The translations under genes and the position numbers were made by a program. This document shows positions 1,100 through 63,641 of a stretch of 64,000 bases of DNA, one piece after another. This DNA comes from Candidatus Omnitrophota bacterium (lineage in GTDB: Bacteria; Omnitrophota; Gorgyraeia; Gygaellales; Profunditerraquicolaceae), in assembly GCA_018822885.1 (NCBI GenBank), contig JAHJJA010000047.1, forward strand, positions 5,384 to 69,383, in the 5' to 3' direction. Numbering within the stretch: position 1 is the stretch's first letter; each line of letters starts with the position of its first letter. Below the pieces are notes generated by a model. It did no database searches. It had not been told where the DNA came from and worked only from the letters and a program-made list of their open reading frames with translations.

Positions 1100-4000
1100 A
1101 TGAAAATAGCTATTCTGACAAATGAATACCCGCCGAATGTATATGGCGGCGCCGGAGTCCATGTTGAATATTTGACCCGCGAACTTTCCAGGCTGGAGAA
1201 CGGCGCGCACGTGGTAAAAGTCTTTTGTTTTGGAGCTCAGAAGGCTGAAAGCGCAAATTTAAGAGTTGAAGGGGTAAGCGCGCAGTATGATTTTCCGGTT
1301 AAAGACGCTCGGCATAAAAAGTTCCTGGATACCATGCTCAAAGACATCATCATTTCAGGTGAGCTTGATGATGTCGATATAGTGCATTGTCATACCTGGT
1401 ACAGCCACTTTGCGGGGCTTATGGTAAAACAGCTGTTAAACATTCCGCTTGTCCTGACAACCCACTCCCTGGAGCCGCACCGGCCGTGGAAAGCCGAACA
1501 GCTCGGTACCGCTTATAACGCGAGTTCCTGGATTGAAAGGACCGCTTATGAAAACGCGGATGGTGTCATAGCGGTCTCTAAAGCAATGAGAAAAGATATC
1601 AAGGACCTCTATAACGTGCCTTCCGAAAGGATCAAAGTAATTTATAACGGCATTGACCTAAATCAATATAAGCCGGTTAAGGACAAGGCAGTCCTTAATA
1701 AATACAAAATAGACCCGAAAATCCCGTATATACTTTTTGTCGGCAGGATCACCAGGCAAAAAGGGATCATCCACCTCGTGAACGCGATCAAGCACATTAA
1801 AGCGGGGCATCAGGTGGTTTTATGCGCGGGCGCTCCTGACACAAAAGAAATAGTGGAGGAAATGAAAGTCAAAGTTGAGAAGGTCAGAAAAGAAACAAAG
1901 AATAAAGTCATCTGGATAGAGGAAATGGTTTCTAAAGAAGATATCATAGCGCTTTATTCACAGGCAGCACTTTTTGTCTGTCCCTCGGTTTATGAGCCTT
2001 TTGGCATAATCAATATTGAGGCAATGGCGTGCGAGACCCCGGTAGTCGCGACAAAAGTAGGAGGCATCCCTGAAATAGTCGTGCCAAATGAAACAGGGTT
2101 ACTGGTGCCGATCCAGCACAAAGGCGCCAATGACTTCGAGCCGGTTGAGCCGGAAAAATTCTCAGAGGATTTAGCTTGCGCGATCAATTCTATCATAGAC
2201 GATGCCGGTAAACTTAGAGATATGGGGCTTAAGTCAAGGCAGCGGGTAGTGGAGCTTTTCAGCTGGAAGAGTATAGCCGAGGAGACCCTTGATTTTTATA
2301 AGCACCTTATTGAAAAGAAGGGTGCGCTAGACGTCAAAGGTAAACAGCGTGTGACTATTGAAAAGGTCCTGCCTGAGGTGGACAATGGAAAATATCCGAT
2401 AAAAAGGGTGCCCGGACAGCGCGTGAAAGTCATGGCCCATATTATTTCAGATGGGCACGATGAGAAGACGGCTTTTCTTCATTATTCTCATGCTTCGGAT
2501 AAGACATGGCAGGAAAAAGAACTGCTCCTGCAATATAACGACGAATATCTCGGGGATTTTGAGATTGAAAAAGAAGGTACCTATTTTTACACGGTGCGTT
2601 CCTGGATCGACCACTTTAAGACCTGGCGCAGCGAACTCGAGAAAAAGATCGCGGTAAAACAGGATGTTGCTGTAGATCTTTTAATAGGCGTTTCTTTGAT
2701 AGAGGAAGCATTGGGAAGGGCAGGGAAGAAAGATGGGGAGAAATTATCCGGATATATTGAAAAAATTAAACGTAAGGGTAAGGATCAGATAAAAGCAGCT
2801 TTGAGTAAAGAGCTCCTTGAGCTTATGAAAAAATATCCTGAAAAGGCCCTTATCTCGCAATATCACAACGAACTTGAAGTGAAAGTGGAGAGGGACAGGG
2901 CATCTTTTAGCAGCTGGTACGAGATGTTTCCTCGTTCAACTTCCAGGGTGATAGGTAAGCATGGGACCTTTAAGGATTGTGAGAAACTGCTTCCGGAAAT
3001 CGCAGGTATGGGTTTTGATGTTCTATATTTTCCACCCATCCACCCAATAGGGGTAAAAAACAGGAAGGGCAAGAATAATTCTATAAAAGCCACAGCTTCA
3101 GATCCGGGTAGCCCTTGGGCAATAGGTGGGAAGGAGGGCGGGCATAAAGCAATACATCCAGAGCTGGGGAGTTTTGAGGATTTTGCTTCGCTGGTTGCCA
3201 AGGCCAAAAAACACGGGATGGAGATAGCTCTTGATATTGCTTTTCAGTGTTCAAATGACCATCCGTATATCAAAGAGCATCCCGAGTGGTTCTCCTGGAG
3301 GCCGGATAGGACTATCCAGCACGCTGAAAACCCACCGAAAAAATATGAAGATATCGTCCCTTTTAATTTTAGAACAGACAACTGGAAAGAGTTGTGGGAA
3401 GAGTTAAAATCAATTTTCATCTTCTGGGCACAAAAGGGGGTAAGGATATTCAGGGTAGACAATCCTCACACAAAGCCGGTCGCCTTCTGGGAATGGCTAA
3501 TAGCCGAGGTAAAAAAAGAATATCCTGACACACTCTTTCTTTCCGAGGCTTTTACCAGGCCGAAGATGATGAACATGCTTGCAAAAGTTGGTTTTTCACA
3601 GTCATATACTTACTTCACCTGGAGAAATACAAAGCATGAGCTTGTCGAATATATTAATGACTTGACCAAGACCGCAGCTGCTGAGTTTTTCAGGCCGAAT
3701 TTCTGGCCGAATACTCCTGATATCCTGCACGAATACCTGCAGAAAGGAGGCAGGCCCGCTTTTATCATACGGCTTGTGCTTGCAGGCACGATTTCTTCTA
3801 ATTACGGGATATATGGGGGCGCCTACATAACCTGCCAGAACGAGCCCTATCCGGGTAAAGAAGAGTATGTAAACAACGAAAAGTATGAATTAAAAAACTG
3901 GAATCTAAACGCGCCGGGCAATATTAAGAAAGAAGTCACCCTAATAAACAAGATCAGGAAGGAAAACCCGGCGTTTCAGGAAACAAACAATATAAGCCTC

Positions 4001-4267
4001 AGGGAAACGAATAACCCCAACATAATTTCTTATGTAAAAGCCACTAGAGATCTGTCCAGCGTAATTTTGACCGTTGTAAATCTTGACCCGCGCAACACGC
4101 ATGCGGGCCTGGTAAGTGTGCCTTTAGGCGAACTTGGCTTGCCGGACGACGAAGATTATGAAGTCGAGGATTTATTGAACAATGAAACTTATATCTGGAA
4201 TGGCGAGTGGAACTATGTTGAACTTGATCCTGCCATAACCCCTGCTCATATATTTCGGATCAAGTGA
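1100..4267 (+). CDS. glgE: Bifunctional GT4 glycosyltransferase (glycogen synthase/GlgM-like) fused to alpha-1,4-glucan:maltose-1-phosphate maltosyltransferase (GlgE)
   Basis: The N-terminal ~400 aa has a GT4/glycogen-synthase fold (KIAILTNEYPP..GGAGVHV..., EPFGIINIEAMACETPVVAT..GGIPEIV). Residues ~410-560 match the GlgE N-terminal domain (VTIEKVLPEVDNGKYPIKRVPGQRVKVMAHIISDGHD). The rest is the GlgE GH13_3 catalytic core (FDVLYFPPIHPIG..., RIFRVDNPHTKP, FLSEAFTRPK). Confidence 0.75.
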   Translation: MKIAILTNEYPPNVYGGAGVHVEYLTRELSRLENGAHVVKVFCFGAQKAESANLRVEGVSAQYDFPVKDARHKKFLDTMLKDIIISGELDDVDIVHCHTWYSHFAGLMVKQLLNIPLVLTTHSLEPHRPWKAEQLGTAYNASSWIERTAYENADGVIAVSKAMRKDIKDLYNVPSERIKVIYNGIDLNQYKPVKDKAVLNKYKIDPKIPYILFVGRITRQKGIIHLVNAIKHIKAGHQVVLCAGAPDTKEIVEEMKVKVEKVRKETKNKVIWIEEMVSKEDIIALYSQAALFVCPSVYEPFGIINIEAMACETPVVATKVGGIPEIVVPNETGLLVPIQHKGANDFEPVEPEKFSEDLACAINSIIDDAGKLRDMGLKSRQRVVELFSWKSIAEETLDFYKHLIEKKGALDVKGKQRVTIEKVLPEVDNGKYPIKRVPGQRVKVMAHIISDGHDEKTAFLHYSHASDKTWQEKELLLQYNDEYLGDFEIEKEGTYFYTVRSWIDHFKTWRSELEKKIAVKQDVAVDLLIGVSLIEEALGRAGKKDGEKLSGYIEKIKRKGKDQIKAALSKELLELMKKYPEKALISQYHNELEVKVERDRASFSSWYEMFPRSTSRVIGKHGTFKDCEKLLPEIAGMGFDVLYFPPIHPIGVKNRKGKNNSIKATASDPGSPWAIGGKEGGHKAIHPELGSFEDFASLVAKAKKHGMEIALDIAFQCSNDHPYIKEHPEWFSWRPDRTIQHAENPPKKYEDIVPFNFRTDNWKELWEELKSIFIFWAQKGVRIFRVDNPHTKPVAFWEWLIAEVKKEYPDTLFLSEAFTRPKMMNMLAKVGFSQSYTYFTWRNTKHELVEYINDLTKTAAAEFFRPNFWPNTPDILHEYLQKGGRPAFIIRLVLAGTISSNYGIYGGAYITCQNEPYPGKEEYVNNEKYELKNWNLNAPGNIKKEVTLINKIRKENPAFQETNNISLRETNNPNIISYVKATRDLSSVILTVVNLDPRNTHAGLVSVPLGELGLPDDEDYEVEDLLNNETYIWNGEWNYVELDPAITPAHIFRIK

Positions 4268-4299
4268 ACAGACAGCTAAATTAGGTATTTTCTGCATCC

Positions 4300-4340
4300 A
4301 AAAAGAAAAACCCCGCAGCCAGATTTCTCTGCGGGGTTTT
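4300..4340. terminator. Bidirectional intrinsic terminator between glgE fusion (+) and csp (-)
   Basis: A-run, then CCCCGCAG-N10-CTGCGGGG, then TTTT. Gives a U-tract on either strand. Confidence 0.7.
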
Positions 4341-4360
4341 GTGTGTCAGAATGCTTTAGC

Positions 4361-4561
4361 TTATATTTTCGAAACGTTGGTTGCCTGGTCGCCCTTAGGC
4401 CCCTGGGTAACTTCGTATTCGACTGCGTCGCCTTCTGCTAAGGATTTATAGCCTTCTGACTTGATCGCGCTGTAGTGTACAAAGACGTCTTTTCCATCCT
4501 CGCCAGTGACAAAGCCGTAACCCTTTTGGTTCGAGAACCACTTTACTTTGCCTTTTGCCAT
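4361..4561 (-). CDS. csp: Cold-shock protein (CspA family)
   Basis: 66 aa, [18 protein letters not shown]...VFVHYSAI with RNP1/RNP2 motifs. Confidence 0.9.
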
Positions 4562-4682
4562 TTATTTCTGTTCACCCCCTTTACAACAAAAAAACCGTAA
4601 AGCGTTTTGTTTAGTTCTTTGCTTTTACGGTTTCGTCCATGTTACTAATCGCTATGCTCCTTTGTTTCTGTAGCTTGAAAAT

Positions 4683-4710
4683 AATATAACACATTTTTTT
4701 ATATTGTCAA
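4683..4710 (-). promoter_or_regulatory. Sigma70-type promoter for csp with ~115-nt 5'UTR
   Basis: Minus strand reads TTGACA-N16-TATATT (plus 4705-4710 and 4683-4688). A long 5'UTR is typical of cspA-like genes. Confidence 0.5.
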
Positions 4711-4752
4711 TCTAAACTTTATGCTATAATTACATAAATATTTTAGCAGTTT

Positions 4753-4985
4753 GCCGATGTAGCTTAAGCCCCGAAAGGCGCTTCGTGCATTCGGGTCCCG
4801 ACTTACGACATTAGATGTCGTTTGGTCGGAACGTCGGGATTGGTAGATTGGTGGTAGGATTATCATATGCCGATGTAGCTCAGCCCCGACGCTCGCTTAC
4901 GCTCGGTCGGGGTCCCGACTTCCGACACTAGATGTCGTTTGGTCGGAACGTCGGGATTGGTAGATTGGTGGTAGGATTATCATAT
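4753..4985 (+). repeat. Two tandem ~116-nt structured repeat units abutting tRNA-Thr, each starting with a copy of the tRNA's first 15 nt
   Basis: Unit 1 is 4753-4868 and unit 2 is 4869-4985. Both begin GCCGATGTAGCT(T/C)A, matching the tRNA-Thr 5' end. Each has a GC-clamped hairpin (CCCGAA-N14-TTCGGG in unit 1, CCCCGAC-GCTCGCTTACGCTCG-GTCGGGG in unit 2) whose stem changes are compensatory. A second hairpin TCCCGAC-N30-GTCGGGA follows in both. Confidence 0.7.
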
Positions 4986-53720: not shown

Positions 53721-55013
53721 ATGTTTATATTCTACGATTTAATATTTTTATTGGTTGCAATTATCCTTTTACCTAAGTATTTATTGAAAAGGAAATTCCG
53801 CAGCGCTTTTCTTTCGCGGCTTGGGCAGCTGCCTGAAGGATTGTCATTAGATAGGCCGATATGGATCCATGCGGTAAGCGTTGGGGAAGTGATGGCGGTG
53901 CGGGGGCTTATCGATGAACTTAGAAAGGCTTACCCTCAAAAGAAATTTGTGATTTCCACGGTGACTGCGACCGGCAATAAGATCGCAAACAGCCTTGCAA
54001 AGCCGGGTGACCTTGTGACTTATCTGCCTCTTGATTTAAGTTTTATCGTAAAAGGCCTGATCAATAAGATAGATCCGATTGCCTTTGTGGTAGTTGAGAC
54101 GGAGATCTGGCCAAATCTGTTCAGCTGTCTATATAAAAAAGGAATCCCGGTAGTAACTGTAAACGGGAGGATCTCCGATTCCTCCTTTAGGGGCTATTCC
54201 AGGATAAAATTTTTGCTTAAGCCTATTTTAAACAGGGTGAGCGTTTTTTGCGTACAAACAACAGCTGATGCCCAAAGGCTTAAGAGTTTAGGGGTAGCTG
54301 AAGATAAGATCCGCGTTACAGGAAACGTAAAATTTGATATACGGCCTTATTCCGGGGTCGATTCTTCAAGCGTAAGAAAAAGACTGGGGATTACCGTTGG
54401 ATATAAACTTTTGGTTGCAGGAAGCACACATCAGGGGGAAGAGGAAATAATCTTAGCTGTTTACAAGCAGCTGTTAAAGGTGCATCCGGATCTAAGGCTT
54501 TTACTTGCGCCTCGCCATCCGGAACGCGCGCAGGAGGTGGGGAGGCTGGTTCTATCTTGTGGTTTTGAGCCGGTTTTTATCTCTAAATTATCCCAGTTGC
54601 CTAACACTTATCGTTTGCCTCCTGTATTTATTCTTGATACTATCGGCCAATTAATGGATTATTATGCTGCCGCTGATATTGTTTTTGTGGGGGGCAGCCT
54701 TATTGAGAAAGGCGGGCATAATATTCTTGAGCCGGCCAGCCTTAATAAACCGATTCTCTTTGGGCCGCATATGTTCAACTTCCGTGAGATCACAGAGCTG
54801 TTTCTTGAGAATAAATCCGCTGTTATGGTGCGTAATGGCCAGGAGTTAAGTGGTCAATTAGAGGTTTTGTTGGTGGATCCTTTTAAGCGGGAGGATCTTG
54901 GCAGCCGTTCAAGCCGGCTTTTGCGCCAAAATCAGGGCGCAACCAAACGTAACCTGGAGTTTATAAAAAGCGCATTAACCATAAATCAAGATATAAAGGG
55001 CAAAAAAGGATAA
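53721..55013 (+). CDS. waaA: 3-deoxy-D-manno-octulosonic acid (Kdo) transferase
   Basis: N-terminal TM anchor plus the KdtA glycosyltransferase family pattern. Confidence 0.8.
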   Translation: MFIFYDLIFLLVAIILLPKYLLKRKFRSAFLSRLGQLPEGLSLDRPIWIHAVSVGEVMAVRGLIDELRKAYPQKKFVISTVTATGNKIANSLAKPGDLVTYLPLDLSFIVKGLINKIDPIAFVVVETEIWPNLFSCLYKKGIPVVTVNGRISDSSFRGYSRIKFLLKPILNRVSVFCVQTTADAQRLKSLGVAEDKIRVTGNVKFDIRPYSGVDSSSVRKRLGITVGYKLLVAGSTHQGEEEIILAVYKQLLKVHPDLRLLLAPRHPERAQEVGRLVLSCGFEPVFISKLSQLPNTYRLPPVFILDTIGQLMDYYAAADIVFVGGSLIEKGGHNILEPASLNKPILFGPHMFNFREITELFLENKSAVMVRNGQELSGQLEVLLVDPFKREDLGSRSSRLLRQNQGATKRNLEFIKSALTINQDIKGKKG

Positions 55014-55019
55014 TTCCGG

Positions 55020-55047
55020 TTGACAAAAAGGAAATTAGTGTTATACT
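55020..55047 (+). promoter_or_regulatory. Sigma70-type promoter in the csp leader region
   Basis: TTGACA-N16-TATACT. Confidence 0.5.
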
Positions 55048-55082
55048 TAAATCCGTAGTAAATGAAGATTAGAAATCTTGGA

Positions 55083-55117
55083 CCGAAAGGTAAAGAACAC
55101 TATCTTTCGGTTTTTTT
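55083..55117 (+). terminator. Intrinsic terminator (terminator of waaA and/or attenuator in the csp leader)
   Basis: CCGAAAG-N14-CTTTCGG followed by TTTTTTT. Confidence 0.6.
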
Positions 55118-55221
55118 GTGTATGTCATTGTTTACCCCGTTAGAAAAACTAGTGTGCGGTAAAGGTGATAAAGGTTTCTAACGGGATTTACTATAATTTT
55201 AGTGAGAGGAGGTAGTAAACA

Positions 55222-55422
55222 ATGGCAAGAGGCAAAGTAAAGTGGTTCTCTAATCAGAAAGGTTATGGTTTTATCACACCTGAATCCGGTAGCGATGTAT
55301 TTGTTCATCACAGCGCTATACAGGGTGAAGGTTATAAAACCTTGACTGATGGGCAGGAAGTAGAGTTTGATATTGAGAAAGGCCCAAAGGGAGATCAGGC
55401 AGTTAACGTGGTTAAGCTTTAA
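55222..55422 (+). CDS. csp: Cold-shock protein (CspA family)
   Basis: [33 protein letters not shown]. Confidence 0.9.
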
Positions 55423-55435
55423 CCCGTAAAAACAA

Positions 55436-55472
55436 GAGCCCGGCTTTCCTTCCGGAAAAGCCGGGCTTTTTT
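55436..55472 (+). terminator. Rho-independent terminator
   Basis: GAGCCCGGCTTT-N9-AAAGCCGGGCT followed by TTTTTT. Confidence 0.8.
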
Positions 55473-55506
55473 GTTTGTAGGCTTAGAAAACAAAAAGGAG
55501 CATTAA

Positions 55507-55713
55507 ATGCATACAGGTAAAATCAAGAAGTTAGTTCGTGAAAGAGGATTTGGTTTCATTAGCGATACAGACGGAAGAGAAGTGTTTTTTCACCAGTCGA
55601 GCTTGATTGATGTGAAATTTGATTCATTGAATGAAGAAGCAAATGTGGAATTTGACATTGAGAAATCAGATAAAGGCCCGCGTGCAGTCAATGTGAAGGT
55701 TATGGCTGCCTAA
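55507..55713 (+). CDS. Cold-shock domain protein (divergent)
   Basis: 68 aa. RNP1-like RGFGFI and RNP2-like VFFHQ. Confidence 0.75.
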   Translation: MHTGKIKKLVRERGFGFISDTDGREVFFHQSSLIDVKFDSLNEEANVEFDIEKSDKGPRAVNVKVMAA

Positions 55714-55727
55714 CAAAGCAGGTAATT

Positions 55728-57020
55728 ATGAAAATAGTCCTGATAGAGCCGGCTTGCTCCGAGGCAAATGTCTATAGCAGGTTGCATATGCCCTTATTGG
55801 GGCCGGTATACCTTGGAACGATTTTAAGGGATAGAGGGCATGAGGTAGAGGTTTATAATGAGGATATCCTCCGGCCTGACTATTCTGGACTTGATGCCGA
55901 TATTATAGGCATCTCGATCCTGACTTCCACTGCCAAGCGCGGGTATGAGATCGCCCGCAGGTTCCCTAAAGAAAAAGTGATTATGGGGGGTGTGCACGCA
56001 AGCCTCCTGCCGGAAGAGGCACTTGAGGTTTGCCGGCAGGTGGTTGTCGGCGAGGCCGAAGAGGTGATTGCCGGGATAGTCGAAGGGACTATAACAGAAA
56101 GGATCGTTCAAGGTAAGGCAGTGCAAAATCTGGACAGCCTGCCGTATCCTGATTTCTCTTTGATCAAAGGCTATAAGCAGAGTTCTTTTATCTCGCCTAT
56201 TTCGACTTCCCGCGGATGCCCTTTTGATTGCACATTTTGTTCTGTGACAAAGATGTTTGGCCGCAAATACCGTTTTCGCAGCGCCCAGAATGTAATGAAA
56301 GAACTGACTTCCCGCAACGCCGGAACGCTTTTTTTCGTGGATGATAATTTTACAGCCAGCCCTTCGCGCACGCGCACTCTTTTAGAGATGATGTTAGAAC
56401 ATAAGCTTCCCACTAAATGGAGTTGTCAGGTGCGCTGTGATGTGACAAATAACGAGCACCTGCTTTCTTTAATGTCACGTGCAGGATGCACTGTTGCTTG
56501 CGTAGGTTTTGAGTCGGTAAACCAAAAAACCCTCGAGGCCTTTGACAAAAAGCAGGGGTTAGAGGATATTATCAGGGCAATAAAGTGTTTTCATAAAAAG
56601 AAGATCAAGGTCCACGGCATGTTTGTTTTGGGCGGAGATGATGACAGCGAGCATACAGTGTGGGAGACTCTTAAATTCGCTCTTAAGCAGAAAATAGATA
56701 CTATTCAGATGTCTATCCTTACTCCTTTTCCCGGCACCAAGGTCCATGATGATTTAAAGAAGGAAGGCAGGATCTTTAGCCGCGATTGGAGCCTTTATGA
56801 CGGCCAGCATATAGTTTTTAAGCCAAAAATGCTTTCTTCAAAGCAGCTGCAGTTAAGCGTATTGCAAGCCTACCGCAAGTTTTATTCACTTTCCAGGTCA
56901 GTTTCACTCTTAATCAGGCTGAAATTCCACAATGCAATGTTCCGCCTGATGGGTTATAAGATCGTCAGGGAGTGGATCGGGCATAATCGTAAATTGCACT
57001 GGATCCCGCAGGGGCAATAA
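55728..57020 (+). CDS. B12-binding domain radical SAM protein
   Basis: N-terminal cobalamin-binding-like Rossmann domain, then CPFDCTFC (CxxxCxxC) radical SAM core. Confidence 0.7.
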   Translation: MKIVLIEPACSEANVYSRLHMPLLGPVYLGTILRDRGHEVEVYNEDILRPDYSGLDADIIGISILTSTAKRGYEIARRFPKEKVIMGGVHASLLPEEALEVCRQVVVGEAEEVIAGIVEGTITERIVQGKAVQNLDSLPYPDFSLIKGYKQSSFISPISTSRGCPFDCTFCSVTKMFGRKYRFRSAQNVMKELTSRNAGTLFFVDDNFTASPSRTRTLLEMMLEHKLPTKWSCQVRCDVTNNEHLLSLMSRAGCTVACVGFESVNQKTLEAFDKKQGLEDIIRAIKCFHKKKIKVHGMFVLGGDDDSEHTVWETLKFALKQKIDTIQMSILTPFPGTKVHDDLKKEGRIFSRDWSLYDGQHIVFKPKMLSSKQLQLSVLQAYRKFYSLSRSVSLLIRLKFHNAMFRLMGYKIVREWIGHNRKLHWIPQGQ

Positions 57021-57114
57021 CTTCCCAATATTTTCTAAATTAATTCCATTTTCTTTAATATATGATAAGATATATCTATCAGTTATGAAGGATATATTCT
57101 ATCTTATGAGGATT

Positions 57115-57172
57115 AAAAGACGTTTCTAGTTTTTTAGCTAAAGTGTTAAAAACTTAGATGCGTCTTTTTTTT
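57115..57172 (+). terminator. Stem-loop with 8-nt U-tract
   Basis: AAAAGACG-N38-CGTCTTTT followed by TTTT. Confidence 0.4.
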
Positions 57173-57188
57173 AAGAAAGGGGGCCACT

Positions 57189-58310
57189 ATGGCAAAGAAA
57201 GTCACTGTTTTAGGTGCGGGAAACGCAGGGCATGCGGCTGCTTTTGAGATTTCACTAAACGGCCAGGAGGTCATGCTTTTTGAACACCCTAATTTTGCCA
57301 AAAGTTTAGACGGGATCAGGCAGAAAGGCGGTATCGAGGCGGTCAAAGAGTTGACTACAGAAGGAAAGATCGTCCCCGCTATGATGTCTGGGTTTGCTAA
57401 GATAACCGGCTTGACTACAGACCCTAAAGAGGCGATGGATTTTGCTGATATAGTAGTGATGCTTGTGCCGCAATTCGCGCAGGAGACGATCTTTAAATTA
57501 ATGATGCCCTATCTTCGCGACGGACAGATTTTTGTGGTACTGCCGGGTAACTTCGGTTCAATGATCTTTAGAAAATTGATGAAAGAAGGGGGGATCAACA
57601 AAAAAGTCACCTTTGTTGAGACGACCTCGATCCCTTACGCGGTTAGAGTCATCGCTCCGGGGACAATTTATATAGAAGGAAAAAAGTCGGCTTTCTCGGC
57701 GGCTTCTTTGCCTGCTTCAGAGATCAATAATGTGATAGAAGCGCTTAAGGATGTTTTATTTTTAAAGATCATCCCTCTTAAAAATGTGCTGGAGGTCTGG
57801 TTGTCAAACCCCAATATGATCATGCATGTGGCTACCGCCACTCTTGGGATGGGGCCGATGGAATCGAGGCAGGGAAAGATCCAGTTTTACGCGGAAGGAT
57901 GCTCGCCTTCAGTAGCAAAGGTCCTGGAAAAAGAGGATGAGGAAAGGCTTGCCGTAGGCAAGGCCTATGGTTTAGACTTGATGTCATTTGTGGATGTTGT
58001 TAATAATTTTTACGAGCTGAACATGAAGAGCATCCGTGATTTTGCCGAGCATACCCCGATTCATAACCGCATGCCTAATGATTCTCCGAAGAGCCCAAAG
58101 GAAAGATACATCAGTGAAGACTGTCCTTGCGGGCTGGTGCCTGTTTATGATTTCGGTAAGGCAGCGGGTGTAGCCTGTCCTACTATGGAGGCGATCATCA
58201 GAATAGATAATATTTACAACGATGCCGACTATTTTAAAAGCGGCATCACTTTGCAGAAACTCGGGTTATCGGGAATGAGCAAGGAGCAGATACTGGATGT
58301 TTTAAAGTGA
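57189..58310 (+). CDS. NAD(P)-dependent opine (octopine/nopaline-type) dehydrogenase family protein
   Basis: VTVLGAGNAGHAAAFE Rossmann N-terminus and a helical C-terminal domain. Family assignment by pattern recall. Confidence 0.55.
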   Translation: MAKKVTVLGAGNAGHAAAFEISLNGQEVMLFEHPNFAKSLDGIRQKGGIEAVKELTTEGKIVPAMMSGFAKITGLTTDPKEAMDFADIVVMLVPQFAQETIFKLMMPYLRDGQIFVVLPGNFGSMIFRKLMKEGGINKKVTFVETTSIPYAVRVIAPGTIYIEGKKSAFSAASLPASEINNVIEALKDVLFLKIIPLKNVLEVWLSNPNMIMHVATATLGMGPMESRQGKIQFYAEGCSPSVAKVLEKEDEERLAVGKAYGLDLMSFVDVVNNFYELNMKSIRDFAEHTPIHNRMPNDSPKSPKERYISEDCPCGLVPVYDFGKAAGVACPTMEAIIRIDNIYNDADYFKSGITLQKLGLSGMSKEQILDVLK

Positions 58311-58325
58311 AAATCGGGAGGAACG

Positions 58326-59342
58326 ATGAAGGCGGCATTTTTTGATTTAGAAGGGTGGGAGTTACCAGTAATCACGGAAGTTTTTAAGGGCAAGGGGATA
58401 GAAATAATCAGGGCAGAGAATGATCTGTTGAATAAGAATACTCTTCCTCAAATAAAAGAAGCAGAGGTTCTTTCAATCGCTTATTCCTTAGCTGATAGGG
58501 CAGTGATCGAGGCATTGCCGAATTTAAAATTGATAAGCACGCGCACTACCGGTTTTGACAATGTGGACACTGTTTTTGCCAAAGAGAAGGGGATCGGGGT
58601 TATAAATGTTCCTTCTTACGGAGAAGAGACGGTGGCAGAATATGCTATGGCTTTGATCCTGAATTTATCCCGCAGAATGAGCATGACCTTTTTAAGAAGC
58701 CTGTTCGGAGTATTCGACCAGAAAATGGTGCGCGGTAATGACCTGGAAGGAAAAACTTTAGGAGTAATCGGAACCGGCAAAATAGGCAGGAAACTGATCA
58801 AAATGGCCAGCGGTTTTGATATGAATATTATCTGTTATGATGTCTATCCGAATCAGGAGGTGGTTGATAAATATAAGGCCAAGTATGTCAGCCTCGAAGA
58901 GTTATTTAAGGCCTCGGATGTGATCTCGATCCACTCTCCTTATACGAAAGAGACGCACCACTTGATTAATTTCGATACATTAAAATCATTAAAGAAGGGT
59001 GTGCTTTTGGTGAATACCGCGCGCGGCCCGATTGTGGATACTTCGGCTATCTTGCAGGGGGTCAAAGACGGTATTTTTGGCGGTGTGGCTTTGGATACTT
59101 TTGAAGGAGAGCAGGTCTGGGTAAAAGAAGAAAGTATCATCGGTAATAAGGCCGAGCTTCCGGCGGGCGAGGTCTTTAAAAAAGGCCTGGAGTCATTCTA
59201 TCTTTTGCGCTTTAGAAATGTCATCCTTACTCCGCATAATGCATTTAACAGTCATGAGGCAGTAAGAAGGATACTTGATACCTCTGTTTCTGATATCGGC
59301 GCTTTTTGCCAAAAGGGCAATTGCGAGCATCGCGTAGTTTAA
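58326..59342 (+). CDS. D-isomer-specific 2-hydroxyacid dehydrogenase
   Basis: GxGxxG NAD site (GVIGTGKIGR) and catalytic R/E/H in the conserved order. Confidence 0.8.
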   Translation: MKAAFFDLEGWELPVITEVFKGKGIEIIRAENDLLNKNTLPQIKEAEVLSIAYSLADRAVIEALPNLKLISTRTTGFDNVDTVFAKEKGIGVINVPSYGEETVAEYAMALILNLSRRMSMTFLRSLFGVFDQKMVRGNDLEGKTLGVIGTGKIGRKLIKMASGFDMNIICYDVYPNQEVVDKYKAKYVSLEELFKASDVISIHSPYTKETHHLINFDTLKSLKKGVLLVNTARGPIVDTSAILQGVKDGIFGGVALDTFEGEQVWVKEESIIGNKAELPAGEVFKKGLESFYLLRFRNVILTPHNAFNSHEAVRRILDTSVSDIGAFCQKGNCEHRVV

Positions 59343-59353
59343 GAGGGCAGTTT

Positions 59354-60781
59354 ATGGAAGAGTTTGTTATAAAGGAAAAAGCAAGGCAAAGGTGGTTGAT
59401 CGCGCTTACTTGTGCGGTATCTCTGATGATCACCTTTGATTATAGCAGTTTGAATATTTCTATTTCTGCTATCGCGCAATATTTTGGAGTAAAAGTCGGC
59501 GTTGCAGCTTGGCTTCCGACAGTCTACCTCTTGATTATCACAAGTTCGCTTCTTGGGTTCGGAAAGCTCGGGGATATTATAGGGTATAAGAAAGTCTATG
59601 TTATGGGTTTGAGCGTATTCTGTTTAGGGGGCTTTTTATGCGCGGTCTCCCCGAGTTTTAATTTGCTTTTAGCCGCTCGTTCATTACAGTCTTTTGGCCA
59701 GGCTATGTACAGCCCGATTTGCATTGCCATGCTTACTACTTTCCTGCCCGCGGATATGAAAGGAAAGGCCCTTGGCCTTTATGCTACTTTTCAAGGGTTA
59801 GGGCTTGCCATAGGTCCTGCGGCAGGCGGTTTTATCAACAGTTATTTTAGCTGGCGAGGTAATTTTCTTATTGCTGTGCCGGTTTCCCTGTTGATCATCT
59901 TCGGGGCGGCCAAGATCATTCCATCAAGGCAGGCTAAGGCCGAGGATAAGCGTTTTGATTTTTTTGGAGCAGTTTTATTATTTATCGCTTTAGCGGCTTT
60001 GCTTTATGCTGTCAATTCCGGGGTTAAAATGGGGTGGAGCAACCCTTTGATCATTTCTTGCGGAGTCATTTCTCTGGCATCTTTCATAATATTTTTTCTT
60101 CTTGAGAAGAGGATCAGCTATCCTTTACTTGACTTGAAGTTATTTCAGAACCGCGATTTTACTTTTTCTGTCAGCGCTTCTTTTCTCGGGCTTCTTTTAA
60201 ACATGGGCATGATTTTTCTTTTTCCTTTTTACCTGCAGATGTTAAAGGGGCTGGATATTACAAAGGCAGGGCTTGTGATGGTTTGTCCTTCGATAATGAT
60301 GATGCTTTTGGCTCCTTTCTCCGGCAGTCTTTCTGACCGTATTGGCTCGCGCAAGGTGTGTTCATTCGGGATGGTCTTGGTGATTGTTGCATTTGGGCTT
60401 TTTTCTTTTTTGACGCTTAATTCAAGCCTGCTGTTTATTGTTTTGGCTTTGTTGTGTTTGGGCACCGGAATGGGTTTTTTTATAGCGCCCAATAATAAAC
60501 AGGTCATGGTGCATGCCCCTCAAGGTAAGCAGGGGGTTGCTTCCGGTGTTTATAAGATTTGTTTGAATGCCGGCTCATCGATCGGCATCGCGGTATTTAT
60601 GCTGGTGCTTGCCCAAGTCGTGCTTTTTGACGTGGCAAAAATGAATCTGATGCTTAGTGATGTGCGTAGCCATTCGGATGTTATAATGTCTGGTTTTCGC
60701 GGCGCTTTTATCTTCGGTCTCATTATTGCGGTGATAAATCTGATATTCTGCGTCCTCTCGAAGGATAAGAGGTTGGAATAG
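59354..60781 (+). CDS. MFS transporter (14-TM, DHA2-like exporter)
   Basis: Start at the ATG at 59354. About 14 TM segments and MFS motif A-like loops. Confidence 0.7.
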   Translation: MEEFVIKEKARQRWLIALTCAVSLMITFDYSSLNISISAIAQYFGVKVGVAAWLPTVYLLIITSSLLGFGKLGDIIGYKKVYVMGLSVFCLGGFLCAVSPSFNLLLAARSLQSFGQAMYSPICIAMLTTFLPADMKGKALGLYATFQGLGLAIGPAAGGFINSYFSWRGNFLIAVPVSLLIIFGAAKIIPSRQAKAEDKRFDFFGAVLLFIALAALLYAVNSGVKMGWSNPLIISCGVISLASFIIFFLLEKRISYPLLDLKLFQNRDFTFSVSASFLGLLLNMGMIFLFPFYLQMLKGLDITKAGLVMVCPSIMMMLLAPFSGSLSDRIGSRKVCSFGMVLVIVAFGLFSFLTLNSSLLFIVLALLCLGTGMGFFIAPNNKQVMVHAPQGKQGVASGVYKICLNAGSSIGIAVFMLVLAQVVLFDVAKMNLMLSDVRSHSDVIMSGFRGAFIFGLIIAVINLIFCVLSKDKRLE

Positions 60782-60871: not shown

Positions 60872-61591
60872 ATGGAGATAAAAGGCAGACAAAGAGAAAG
60901 TGTTATAATCCTTGATTTGGCCGGTAAGATCGATGTAAATTCCGGCCCGTTTGTCGAAGCAGTAGGCCAGTGCCTGCGCGACGGCTACACCGATATCCTT
61001 TGTAATTTTGAAGAGGTGGATCTGGTGGATTACATGGGTATCTCTGTAATCGTGATCGCCTATAAAGAAGTGGTCAATTATCACGGCAGGATGAAGTTTG
61101 TGAATGTGCCGGCTCATGTCAGGAGTGCTCTTTCTATATGCGGCCTTGATAAAGCCATTGAGATATACGCCGATGAGGATATGGCGGTAAACACCTTTAA
61201 AGAAGACAAGATCATAGAAGATATTAAGAAAATGCAGCTTCGCCGCAGGTTTAAGCGCCTGCCTATAGATATAAAGATCGAGTTAAAGGCTAAGCGCCCA
61301 AGGGCCCCGGAGTGCTATAAATTAGACATACTTGATTTAAGCGCGATAGGCGCCTATATTTATGGCTGCGATAAATTCAAACTGGGAGATGAAGTTCTGA
61401 TAAAAATGAAACTGCCTCCCGAAAATGAAGAGATGGAGCTTGATGCTAAGGTAGTCTGGCTTCCCGATAAACAGGTCCAGCATCAGGTATATCCGGGGAT
61501 GGGGGTTGAATTTTATAATATCTCGACTTCTGCCCAAGCCAAACTCCTTAAGTTTATCGAAAGAAACCTTTCTTCTTCCCTCGCAGAGTAA
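60872..61591 (+). CDS. STAS (anti-sigma antagonist-like) domain fused to a PilZ c-di-GMP-binding domain
   Basis: N-terminal SpoIIAA-like STAS. C-terminal PilZ signatures RRRFKR (RxxxR) and DLSAIGAYIYG (DxSxxG). Confidence 0.55.
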   Translation: MEIKGRQRESVIILDLAGKIDVNSGPFVEAVGQCLRDGYTDILCNFEEVDLVDYMGISVIVIAYKEVVNYHGRMKFVNVPAHVRSALSICGLDKAIEIYADEDMAVNTFKEDKIIEDIKKMQLRRRFKRLPIDIKIELKAKRPRAPECYKLDILDLSAIGAYIYGCDKFKLGDEVLIKMKLPPENEEMELDAKVVWLPDKQVQHQVYPGMGVEFYNISTSAQAKLLKFIERNLSSSLAE

Positions 61592-62594: not shown

Positions 62595-63641
62595 ATGAAA
62601 AACTATCTTTTTAGTCTAGCTACTGACAAGAACAAAAACGTTATAGCCGGGGTTTTGAAGTTTCTTTTATTCTTGCTGTCTGTTGCCTATGGCGGTATAG
62701 TCCGGATCCTGATTTACGTTAATCAAAAAAGAGCAGTTACCTTAAATTGTAAAGTAATCAGCGTTGGGAATATAACTTTAGGAGGCACCGGAAAGACTTC
62801 TTTAGTAGAATTTATTGCCCGGTTTTTAAAGCAAAAAGGGAAAAAAATAGCGGTTCTAAGCAGGGGGTATAAGAGGGTTATGATGTCGCAGGATGGGGAT
62901 TGTCGCCAGATGGGGGATGAGCCTTATATGCTGCAGCGTAACTTAAAGGATGTCCCGGTCATTGTGGATGCTGACAGAGTTCGTGGAGCTGCCAAGGCGA
63001 TAAAGGATTTCGGCGCAGACACTGTTATTCTTGATGATGGTTTTCAGCAGTGGAAAATCAGAAAAGATCTGGAGATCGTCTCTATCGACGCTACCTGCCC
63101 CTTTGGCAATAGAAACATGCTTCCGCGGGGGATTTTGCGTGAGCCGTTATCCTCGCTAAGGCGCGCAGACATTTTTGTTTTAACCAAATCCAATCTTAAG
63201 CGGGATGTCGGCGGTATTAAATCTGTCTTAAATAAACTTAATCCTAAGGCTTTGATTTTTGAATCTGTCCATGAGCCGGTAGGCTTTTACGAGGCTAATG
63301 ATCTAGGCAAGGGGCTTGCTCTTGATTCTTTTAGGGGAAAAAGAGTAATTTTATTTTCCGGTATAGGCGATCCGGATTCTTTTGAGAATCTGGTCAGAAG
63401 TTTAGAGATAAAAGTCGTATCACACTTTAGATTTGGCGACCACCACTATTATTCGCAGGAAGATTTGAATAATATCACTAAGGCCGCTCAAGAGAATGGG
63501 GCAGAAGCGGTTATAACTACGGAAAAGGATGCAGTGAGATTAGGGGCAGGTAAGTCGCAAGTGCTAGTGTTTAAGATAGAGGTAAAGATAAAAGATGAAG
63601 AAAGATTTTTTAATAGATTACTCAAGTTATATTCTGTTTAG
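62595..63641 (+). CDS. lpxK: Tetraacyldisaccharide 4'-kinase
   Basis: VISVGNITLGGTGKTSLV P-loop after an N-terminal TM anchor. Confidence 0.8.
   Translation: MKNYLFSLATDKNKNVIAGVLKFLLFLLSVAYGGIVRILIYVNQKRAVTLNCKVISVGNITLGGTGKTSLVEFIARFLKQKGKKIAVLSRGYKRVMMSQDGDCRQMGDEPYMLQRNLKDVPVIVDADRVRGAAKAIKDFGADTVILDDGFQQWKIRKDLEIVSIDATCPFGNRNMLPRGILREPLSSLRRADIFVLTKSNLKRDVGGIKSVLNKLNPKALIFESVHEPVGFYEANDLGKGLALDSFRGKRVILFSGIGDPDSFENLVRSLEIKVVSHFRFGDHHYYSQEDLNNITKAAQENGAEAVITTEKDAVRLGAGKSQVLVFKIEVKIKDEERFFNRLLKLYSV

Follow-up and report, generated by a model that had tools for sequence, protein, structure and literature searches.

In this work, we have analysed a stretch of 64,000 nucleotides from a Candidatus Omnitrophota metagenome-assembled genome (MAG), hereafter the window, in which four co-directional genes, coding for a B12-binding radical SAM enzyme, an opine dehydrogenase (ODH), a D-2-hydroxyacid dehydrogenase and an exporter of the major facilitator superfamily (MFS), had been predicted to form a single small-molecule locus. 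Our results show that the flagged region consists of two unrelated units: one, at about 55020-57176, carries two cold-shock genes (csp1 and csp2) and the radical SAM gene, and the other, at 57189-60781, carries the ODH, the D-2-hydroxyacid dehydrogenase and an MFS permease of the DHA2 family, which together form a real, conserved three-gene unit. The four open reading frames (ORFs) do lie on the plus strand, with the boundaries and the domains that had been assigned to them (Pfam and NCBIfam matches), and the caveat, raised in the same prediction, that two transcription units might be present was well founded, since synteny splits the locus and a hairpin followed by a U8 tract lies at the division. 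The linkage of the three cassette genes is solid; their chemistry is unproven. Each of the four proteins adds a new member to a known family, and the cassette formed by the ODH, the D-lactate dehydrogenase (D-LDH)-type enzyme and the DHA2 permease, with or without a pyruvate decarboxylase (PDC)-like enzyme, appears to be undescribed.

The opine dehydrogenase cassette

Loci related to that of the window were gathered from species-representative genomes (80 loci) and from metagenome contigs (11 loci), and were completed by exact-protein look-ups; they are designated here by L-numbers. The ODH clade, delimited at 47% identity or more, provided 17 informative contexts. A DHA2 MFS gene adjoins the ODH gene in nine of them (the window, L083/84, L082, L101, L102, L006, L001, L094 and L007), and a D-LDH-type dehydrogenase gene does so in six. 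The genes of the cassette are co-directional throughout and are separated by 0-97 nt (15 nt between the ODH and D-2-hydroxyacid dehydrogenase genes and 11 nt between the latter and the MFS gene in the window). The MFS proteins that adjoin ODH in seven other contexts are orthologues 50-65% identical to that of the window, and the one in L007 is a homologue with 35% identity. Starting instead from the D-2-hydroxyacid dehydrogenase, we found five of its six closest homologues (64-75% identity) in clusters in which the ODH gene, in some cases a gene for a thiamine pyrophosphate (TPP)-dependent enzyme, the dehydrogenase gene and the MFS gene follow each other, the exception being L103. As a control, no homologue of the D-LDH-type dehydrogenase or of the MFS permease was found near the distant ODH paralogues (31-42% identity; 69 loci analysed). 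The genes that flank the cassette differ in every genome, and its hosts belong to the Omnitrophota, the Margulisiibacteriota and, in the form of one MAG, the Syntrophales. Of the four-gene association originally proposed, the part made of ODH, D-2-hydroxyacid dehydrogenase and MFS is conserved across phyla, and the part that concerns the radical SAM gene is not.

The dehydrogenase at the head of the cassette is, by family, a true opine dehydrogenase. It matches the Pfam family Octopine_DH (PF02317) over residues 197-341 (6.1e-40, 137.1 bits against a cut-off of 30), and as a single sequence it aligns over its full length with CENDH (3.5e-47), the N-(1-D-carboxyethyl)-L-norvaline dehydrogenase of Arthrobacter sp. 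1C (also called ArODH; 1bg6), and finds the octopine dehydrogenase of the scallop Pecten (3c7a) at 6e-13. A profile built from 25 members of the clade and scored against the PDB gave 262 bits for CENDH (6.7e-77) and 86 bits for octopine dehydrogenase, as against 25 bits for glycerol-3-phosphate dehydrogenase and 20 bits for ketopantoate reductase; these scores bear out the family assigned in the original prediction and rule out a mis-called glycerol-3-phosphate dehydrogenase or ketopantoate reductase. In the Rossmann motif G9-A-G-N-A-G14, residues G9, A10, G11, N12 and G14 are invariant in the 25 homologues, as are H213, R306, Y307, E310 and D311. Of these, H213, R306 and D311 align with H202, R292 and D297 of CENDH and with the RYxxED motif of octopine dehydrogenase, so the catalytic His-Asp dyad (H213, D311) and the carboxylate-binding Arg (R306) are all present. 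We infer that the enzyme uses NADH because its E32 aligns with D34 of the NADH-dependent CENDH. The clade contains a 373-aa and a 395-400-aa subtype of ODH, with about 50% identity between them, and the D-2-hydroxyacid dehydrogenases that accompany the two subtypes are 67-71% identical across them.

The window ODH thus shares with CENDH full-length homology, two domains, the GxGxxG/A Rossmann motif, the His, Arg and Asp catalytic residues and an acidic residue at the NADH-discriminating position, the difference being that the aligned residues, judged by eye, are roughly 35-40% identical. No operon with a D-LDH and an MFS exporter has been described for ArODH, whose host is an aerobic actinobacterium in which the enzyme is used catabolically. 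Among the relatives of ArODH are also PF02317 members of uncultured bacteria from hot springs (mODHs), which have been characterised as reductive aminases of amino acids and pyruvate (PMC10787698); their genomic context is not reported, as a text search of that article finds no mention of a gene cluster.

The second gene codes for a D-isomer-specific dehydrogenase with strong matches to 2-Hacid_dh_C (7.1e-49, 166 bits) and 2-Hacid_dh (2e-26, 92.7 bits). Its best solved relative is the D-LDH of Aquifex (3kb6; 1.9e-60, residues 10-334), with whose corresponding residues the triad R233/E262/H304 aligns, and, as in D-LDH, its catalytic Glu and His are separated by a segment that is missing from phosphoglycerate dehydrogenase; the phosphoglycerate dehydrogenase 1wwk aligns with it up to residue 263 only. 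Phosphoglycerate dehydrogenase and glyoxylate reductase were rejected as identities, since they gave comparable partial scores but the full-length alignment is to D-LDHs only. The curated D-LDH equivalog cut-offs are not reached (165-170 bits against 356-579). D-LDH-type is the limit of this evidence, with D-lactate/pyruvate as the leading guess for the substrate.

The third gene codes for a permease that matches MFS_1 (4e-55) and exceeds the cut-off of the DHA2/EmrB family TIGR00711 (241.7 against 230.2 bits). Of its two possible starts, the ATG at 59354 is the more likely, because an AAGAGGG ribosome-binding site precedes it and it lies 11 nt after the preceding stop codon. The 14 transmembrane segments ascribed to it beforehand agree with DHA2 membership; a crude Kyte-Doolittle scan shows some 12-14 hydrophobic peaks, depending on how they are merged.

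Several relatives carry additional genes. In L082 and L101, the TPP enzyme sits between ODH and the D-2-hydroxyacid dehydrogenase, and its highest-scoring solved relatives are pyruvate decarboxylases of bacteria (391 and 352 bits), with branched-chain and indolepyruvate decarboxylases just below. All pairings have been seen: ODH with D-2-hydroxyacid dehydrogenase, ODH with TPP enzyme (L092/93), and TPP enzyme with D-2-hydroxyacid dehydrogenase in the absence of ODH (L104). In L092 (8180-13514) and L093 (5546-10880), an ODH orthologue with 68% identity is followed by the PDC-like TPP decarboxylase, without the D-2-hydroxyacid dehydrogenase, and the next gene codes for a proton-efflux P-type ATPase of the plasma-membrane type (TIGR01647, 1007 bits), which is unusual as a bacterial pump. 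In L081 (8001-13768), L087 (568-9204) and L088 (2092-10712), ODH belongs to a different conserved cluster, together with AtuA (PF07287), DUF4387, an OprB porin, a GATase/discoidin protein, a pyridoxal phosphate (PLP)-dependent decarboxylase and an APC amino-acid permease. The accessory genes of the relatives (PDC-like, AtuA, DUF4387, GATase/discoidin, PLP decarboxylase, APC permease and H+-ATPase) have no matches in the window.

The distant paralogue loci (L009-L080; Synergistota, Clostridia, Chloroflexota and Thermotogota) often hold two ODH copies each, and their neighbours include DcuC/TRAP dicarboxylate importers, GntR/FCD regulators, two-component systems, and genes of the ornithine cyclodeaminase/mu-crystallin and enolase superfamily types. 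These neighbourhoods look like uptake and catabolism, unlike those of the exporter-linked clade. Beside the TPP enzyme-dehydrogenase pair of L104 (8478-12159; Vulcanimicrobiota) lie two genes of the radical SAM/SPASM type, each with a small ORF of the Nif11 type, which are likely a locus for a ribosomally synthesised and post-translationally modified peptide, unrelated to the ODH cassette.

Table 1. Features of the two units, in window coordinates
Feature	Position	Strand	Basis or remark
Promoter-like TTGACA-16-TATACT (with TG)	55020..55047	+	5' of csp1; start of the csp-csp-radical SAM unit
csp1, 66-aa cold-shock-domain (CSD) protein	55222..55422	+	Pfam CSD 1.1e-29
Terminator-like hairpin after csp1	55437-55467	+	Terminator scan
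csp2, 68-aa divergent cold-shock-domain protein	55507..55713	+	Pfam CSD 3.4e-20
B12-binding radical SAM enzyme, 430 aa, CPFDCTFC	55728..57020	+	Pfam B12-binding, Radical_SAM
AT-rich imperfect 22-nt inverted repeat (57060-57081 / 57086-57107)	57060..57107	+	77% complementary
Intrinsic-terminator-like hairpin + U8	57115..57176	+	End of the csp2-radical SAM unit; the ODH start codon follows after ~12 nt
ODH, CENDH/ArODH type, 373 aa	57189..58310	+	Octopine_DH PF02317, GAGNAG, E32, H213, R306, D311
D-isomer-specific 2-hydroxyacid dehydrogenase, D-LDH subgroup, 338 aa	58326..59342	+	Pfam; R233/E262/H304
DHA2-family MFS efflux permease	59354..60781 (longest ORF from TTG 59306)	+	MFS_1; TIGR00711

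Proposed function and alternative readings

What is the role of the cassette? For its substrates, the direction of its reactions, the cargo of its pump and its physiological role we infer, tentatively, that the cassette makes and exports an opine as a redox sink or overflow of the pyruvate branch. Both dehydrogenases would act on one 2-oxo acid, most probably pyruvate, and on one NADH pool: the ODH would condense the 2-oxo acid reductively with an amino acid, giving an N-(1-carboxyalkyl)-amino acid (the opine), the D-LDH-type enzyme would interconvert the 2-oxo acid and the D-2-hydroxy acid, and the MFS pump would export the acidic product or products. The two dehydrogenases could work as two parallel NADH sinks or as a redox-neutral couple (D-hydroxy acid + amino acid <-> opine + water), and in some relatives the PDC-like TPP enzyme may join the common 2-oxo acid pool. 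Such a pool is suggested because the ODH, D-LDH-type and TPP enzymes are linked in every pair and share only a 2-oxo acid substrate; CENDH uses pyruvate. Synthesis and export are favoured because the conserved transporter is of the efflux type, because the hosts are anaerobic, and because of the proton-pump (L092/93) and PLP-decarboxylase/APC-permease (L087/88) contexts of ODH orthologues, which fit a setting of fermentation or acid stress. In these anaerobes, the cassette would thus be the bacterial equivalent of the ways in which anaerobic glycolysis ends in invertebrates, with lactate, ethanol or opines.

In invertebrates, opine dehydrogenases are terminal dehydrogenases of anaerobiosis (PMC7669893), and the likeness with the octopine, strombine and alanopine dehydrogenases and the LDH of these animals lies in the common superfamily and in the alternative NADH-consuming fates of pyruvate, which here are represented by clustered genes (ODH, D-LDH-type and, in the relatives, PDC-type). 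The difference is that the invertebrate pyruvate reductases are eukaryotic cytosolic enzymes, unclustered and without an exporter.

Several observations weigh against opine synthesis and export. DHA2 pumps are known mainly for the export of drugs and amphiphiles, not of lactate or opines. The reactions of ODHs are reversible, and CENDH was found in an opine-degrading Arthrobacter, which is the catabolic direction. The occurrence of the cassette is sporadic, and the closest ODH orthologues (82-83% identity; L081, L087 and L088) have neither of the two partners, so ODH can work without them. A promoter scan found no sigma-70-like promoter in the 168-nt spacer before ODH, including the part between the terminator-like hairpin and the ODH start; the operon would therefore be transcribed either through read-through that begins in the csp units or from a promoter that escaped recognition. 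The specificity of opine dehydrogenases is not predictable from sequence (PMC7669893). Residues A111/N198 of ArODH have been shown experimentally to switch between hydrophobic and acidic amino-acid substrates, and the hot-spring mODHs, which prefer acidic amino acids, have Arg/Gly at these positions (PMC10787698); the window ODH has N121/N209, which fits neither of the characterised classes, so its amino-acid substrate cannot be assigned.

A wider form of the proposal is that ODH, the D-LDH-type enzyme and the MFS permease, with or without the PDC-like enzyme, make up an 'opine fermentation' module that moves by horizontal transfer in candidate phyla of anaerobes (Omnitrophota, Margulisiibacteriota and Syntrophales), and in which pyruvate and an amino acid would regenerate NAD+ and the opine would be excreted. 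We regard this as somewhat doubtful. If true, the opine pathway of invertebrates would for the first time have an equivalent in prokaryotes, and anoxic sediments and groundwater would have a source of opine-type secondary amines that had so far gone unrecognised; should opines be excreted fermentation products of these widespread nanobacteria, a new class of end products would be added to anaerobic carbon and nitrogen cycling, and the cassette would offer new, naturally paired enzymes for the redox-neutral synthesis of chiral secondary amines from hydroxy acids. In the literature searched we found no description of bacterial opine fermentation, of the ODH/D-LDH-type/MFS cassette, or of ODHs in Omnitrophota or fermenting MAGs. 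The cassette differs from both known bacterial opine systems, the synthesis and catabolism of opines in Agrobacterium and the Cnt metallophores, outside which, to our knowledge, bacterial ODHs have almost no assigned physiology. What the present data contribute is an ODH subclade tied by conserved synteny to a D-LDH-type enzyme, a PDC-type enzyme and an efflux pump in uncultured anaerobes, and a hypothesis that is concrete and, with three or four genes, cheap to test.

Opine catabolism is the alternative that survives best, and we consider it unlikely. In this alternative ODH would cleave an imported N-(1-carboxyalkyl)-amino acid oxidatively, which yields a 2-oxo acid and an amino acid; the 2-oxo acid would then be reduced to a D-2-hydroxy acid by the D-LDH-type enzyme, with re-oxidation of the NADH, or be decarboxylated by the TPP enzyme, and the MFS permease would export the waste acid, with a redox-neutral net outcome and release of the amino acid. 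The reversibility of the ODH reaction allows this, two NAD-linked enzymes close a redox loop in either direction, and the Arthrobacter that is the source of CENDH was reportedly isolated on opine-type compounds. Moreover, ODHs of the same clade lie beside an Opp/Nik-type ABC importer (L004 and L095) or an SSS symporter (L091), and the distant ODH paralogues occur in uptake-type clusters. The conserved transporter of the cassette, however, belongs to the DHA2 efflux family and is no importer, an uptake system or a substrate-responsive regulator is found in none of the six cassettes, and the importer-linked contexts are a minority within the ODH clade.

It is decidedly unlikely that the cassette is dedicated to a secreted specialised metabolite of the opine type (for example a metallophore, osmolyte or signal) whose synthesis would need neither a nicotianamine-synthase (NAS) step nor the radical SAM enzyme. 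The conservation of ODH and exporter in nine contexts follows the logic of CntM plus CntE, and the patchy distribution across phyla at varying genomic sites is like that of accessory gene clusters. Against it, the partners of ODH are of the central-metabolism type (D-LDH and PDC) rather than of the tailoring type, the exporter is missing beside ODH orthologues with 72-83% identity, and no CntL/NAS, CntK, metallophore importer or metal regulator was seen in the window or in the annotated cassettes.

The analogy with staphylopine and the Cnt systems, on which the original prediction had built, does not hold. The core of the known opine zincophore pathways is CntL plus CntM (PMC7438024), and what the cassette has in common with the staphylopine, pseudopaline and yersinopine systems is an opine-forming dehydrogenase gene beside a dedicated exporter gene; the metabolite made would be a secondary-amine polycarboxylate. 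An exporter gene beside the biosynthetic genes is indeed found, in the nine contexts in which the DHA2 gene adjoins ODH. The nicotianamine synthase-like core enzyme CntL was not seen with the window cassette: there is no NAS domain in the Pfam-scanned window genes from dprA to lpxK or in the Pfam-annotated genes of L081-L086 and L101-L104, and no NAS-like family among the neighbours that recur around ODH. The window ODH also lies outside the CntM/staphylopine dehydrogenase family, with no match to PF10100 at E <= 0.01, and CntM structures reach 30-35 bits with the clade profile, over a partial region, as against 262 bits for CENDH. No Opp/Nik-type ABC or TonB-dependent importer was found in the window genes scanned or in the Pfam-annotated cassettes L082, L083/84, L101 and L102; a NikA/Opp-like ABC system lies near ODH only in L004 and L095, two relatives that do not have the cassette. 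Finally, CntM homologues have been mapped in four phyla (PMC7438024), and the hosts of the cassette belong to none of these. A Cnt-like metallophore system is rejected on the basis of CntL, CntM and the importer.

Detoxification or resistance is very unlikely. In this reading ODH would attach pyruvate to a toxic analogue of an amino acid or amine, or a reactive 2-oxo compound would be reduced by the dehydrogenases, and the product would leave the cell through the DHA2 pump. DHA2 pumps are typical resistance exporters, the distribution of the cassette resembles horizontal transfer, and among amino acids the CENDH-type enzymes favour hydrophobic, non-proteinogenic ones (norvaline, for instance), as the name of the enzyme and published work (PMC10787698) indicate. 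Against this reading, no TetR- or MarR-type regulator adjoins any cassette, and the association with PDC and D-LDH is left unexplained. We also know of no precedent for ODH-based detoxification. Highly improbable, finally, is the four-gene model, in which the B12-radical SAM enzyme, in the position of CntL, would supply or tailor a building block for ODH in a staphylopine-like pathway: it has in its favour only the adjacency and common orientation of the genes in one genome, and the neighbourhood data largely refute it, since no orthologue of the radical SAM gene lies beside ODH in about 25 related loci, the gene is tied to cold-shock genes in every context compared, and a strong terminator-like hairpin with a U8 tract separates it from ODH.

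The cold-shock genes, the radical SAM enzyme and the spacer

If the radical SAM gene is not part of the cassette, where does it belong? In all five contexts compared (the window, L098, L099, L100 and L105-108) it lies 3' of one or two cold-shock genes, and the genes on its own 3' side are unrelated from context to context. A csp2-like cold-shock-domain gene of 67-69 aa precedes the radical SAM orthologue by 9-22 nt in L098, L099, L100 and L105-108 (14 nt from the csp2 stop codon to the radical SAM start codon in the window), and the second csp gene usually lies further upstream of this pair. The TTGACA/TATACT hexamer pair found 5' of csp1 is identical in L099 (4007-4034) and L100 (4289-4316). 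Near related ODHs, only unrelated B12-radical SAM genes (24-30% identity) were found, 6-8 kb away and in two contexts, and the radical SAM family is much more widely spread than the ODH clade (at least 6504 matches against 189). Synteny therefore rules the radical SAM enzyme out as a member of the opine locus, and we assign its gene to the csp unit because of the csp synteny, the common promoter-like site and the terminator-like hairpin. The unit formed by csp1, a putative terminator, csp2 and the B12-radical SAM gene is a module conserved across the Omnitrophota; it spans 55020-57176 in the window, 4782-6287 in L098, 4007-6287 in L099, 4289-6296 in L100 and 314-2126 in L105. This negative result means that the radical SAM gene is better studied with its cold-shock partners than with the ODH cassette.

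The enzyme itself has the features of a class B (cobalamin-binding) radical SAM protein, namely an N-terminal B12-binding domain (PF02310; 7.8e-11, 42.3 bits) and a CxxxCxxC core (C-PFD-C-TF-C) within a Radical_SAM domain (PF04055; 3.5e-21, 76.5 bits). Its best PDB relative (2.6e-17) covers the core only, and no NCBIfam equivalog is reached, HpnJ being the best with 140 bits against a cut-off of 577; assignment to a characterised subfamily (HpnJ, BchE, PhpK and others) failed, with all the NCBIfam scores far under the cut-offs. Among its homologues, the 120 listed are 69-77% identical to it, apart from the 100% self-match, and all those named among the matches listed are from Omnitrophota. The radical SAM enzyme may have the small Csp as its RNA-chaperone partner or, indeed, as its protein substrate.

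Two side observations concern this module. A weak, sub-threshold match to the Rfam cspA thermoregulator (35.7 bits against a gathering score of 78; E = 1.5e-06) lies at 55135-55469 and spans the long 5' untranslated region of csp1 plus the csp1 gene. In one Omnitrophota lineage (L105, at 2159-4817, L106 and L107), a trio of the AmmeMemoRadiSam type, described as a second radical SAM gene plus a Memo/AMMECR1 fusion, lies directly 3' of the csp-csp-radical SAM unit.

The spacer between the radical SAM gene and ODH (57021-57188, 168 nt) folds as a whole into two adjoining hairpins (z = -5.23), one formed by an inverted repeat and the other terminator-like. The stem-loop with its U8 tract, noticed already in the original prediction, is real: its arms (57115-57136 / 57147-57168) give -23 kcal/mol and z = -4.45, and none of 200 shuffles folds as well. 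The 20-bp direct repeats reported at 57073-57110 match each other if an indel is allowed, and a gapless finder shows only the inverted repeat, which may be a candidate operator or leader hairpin. A riboswitch or other known RNA leader was rejected: the spacer has no Rfam match at E <= 1, and no comparable leader can be conserved, because in other cassettes the ODH gene begins 16-20 nt after the upstream gene (L083 and L101) or lies in an unrelated intergenic region. The arrangement of the spacer suggests control by read-through or attenuation. Csp proteins are antiterminators in E. coli, and a cold-dependent read-through into the ODH operon, particular to the gene order of the window genome, is by analogy conceivable.

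Neighbouring genes

The order of genes in this part of the window is dprA, topA, xerC, waaA, the unit of csp1, csp2 and radical SAM, the unit of ODH, D-2-hydroxyacid dehydrogenase and MFS, and then STAS-PilZ, GDT1, DUF502 and lpxK. The gene at 60872-61591, 90 nt 3' of the MFS gene, codes for a fusion of an N-terminal STAS domain (anti-sigma-antagonist-like) and a C-terminal PilZ domain (c-di-GMP-binding), and it does not accompany the cassette in other genomes. The lipopolysaccharide genes waaA (Kdo transferase, 53721-55013) and lpxK (62595-63641) are about 7.5 kb apart, and between them lie, besides the ODH cassette and the csp-radical SAM unit, three small genes. The interval showed no signature of a mobile element, and the spacing of waaA and lpxK is compatible with a cassette inserted into a housekeeping region.

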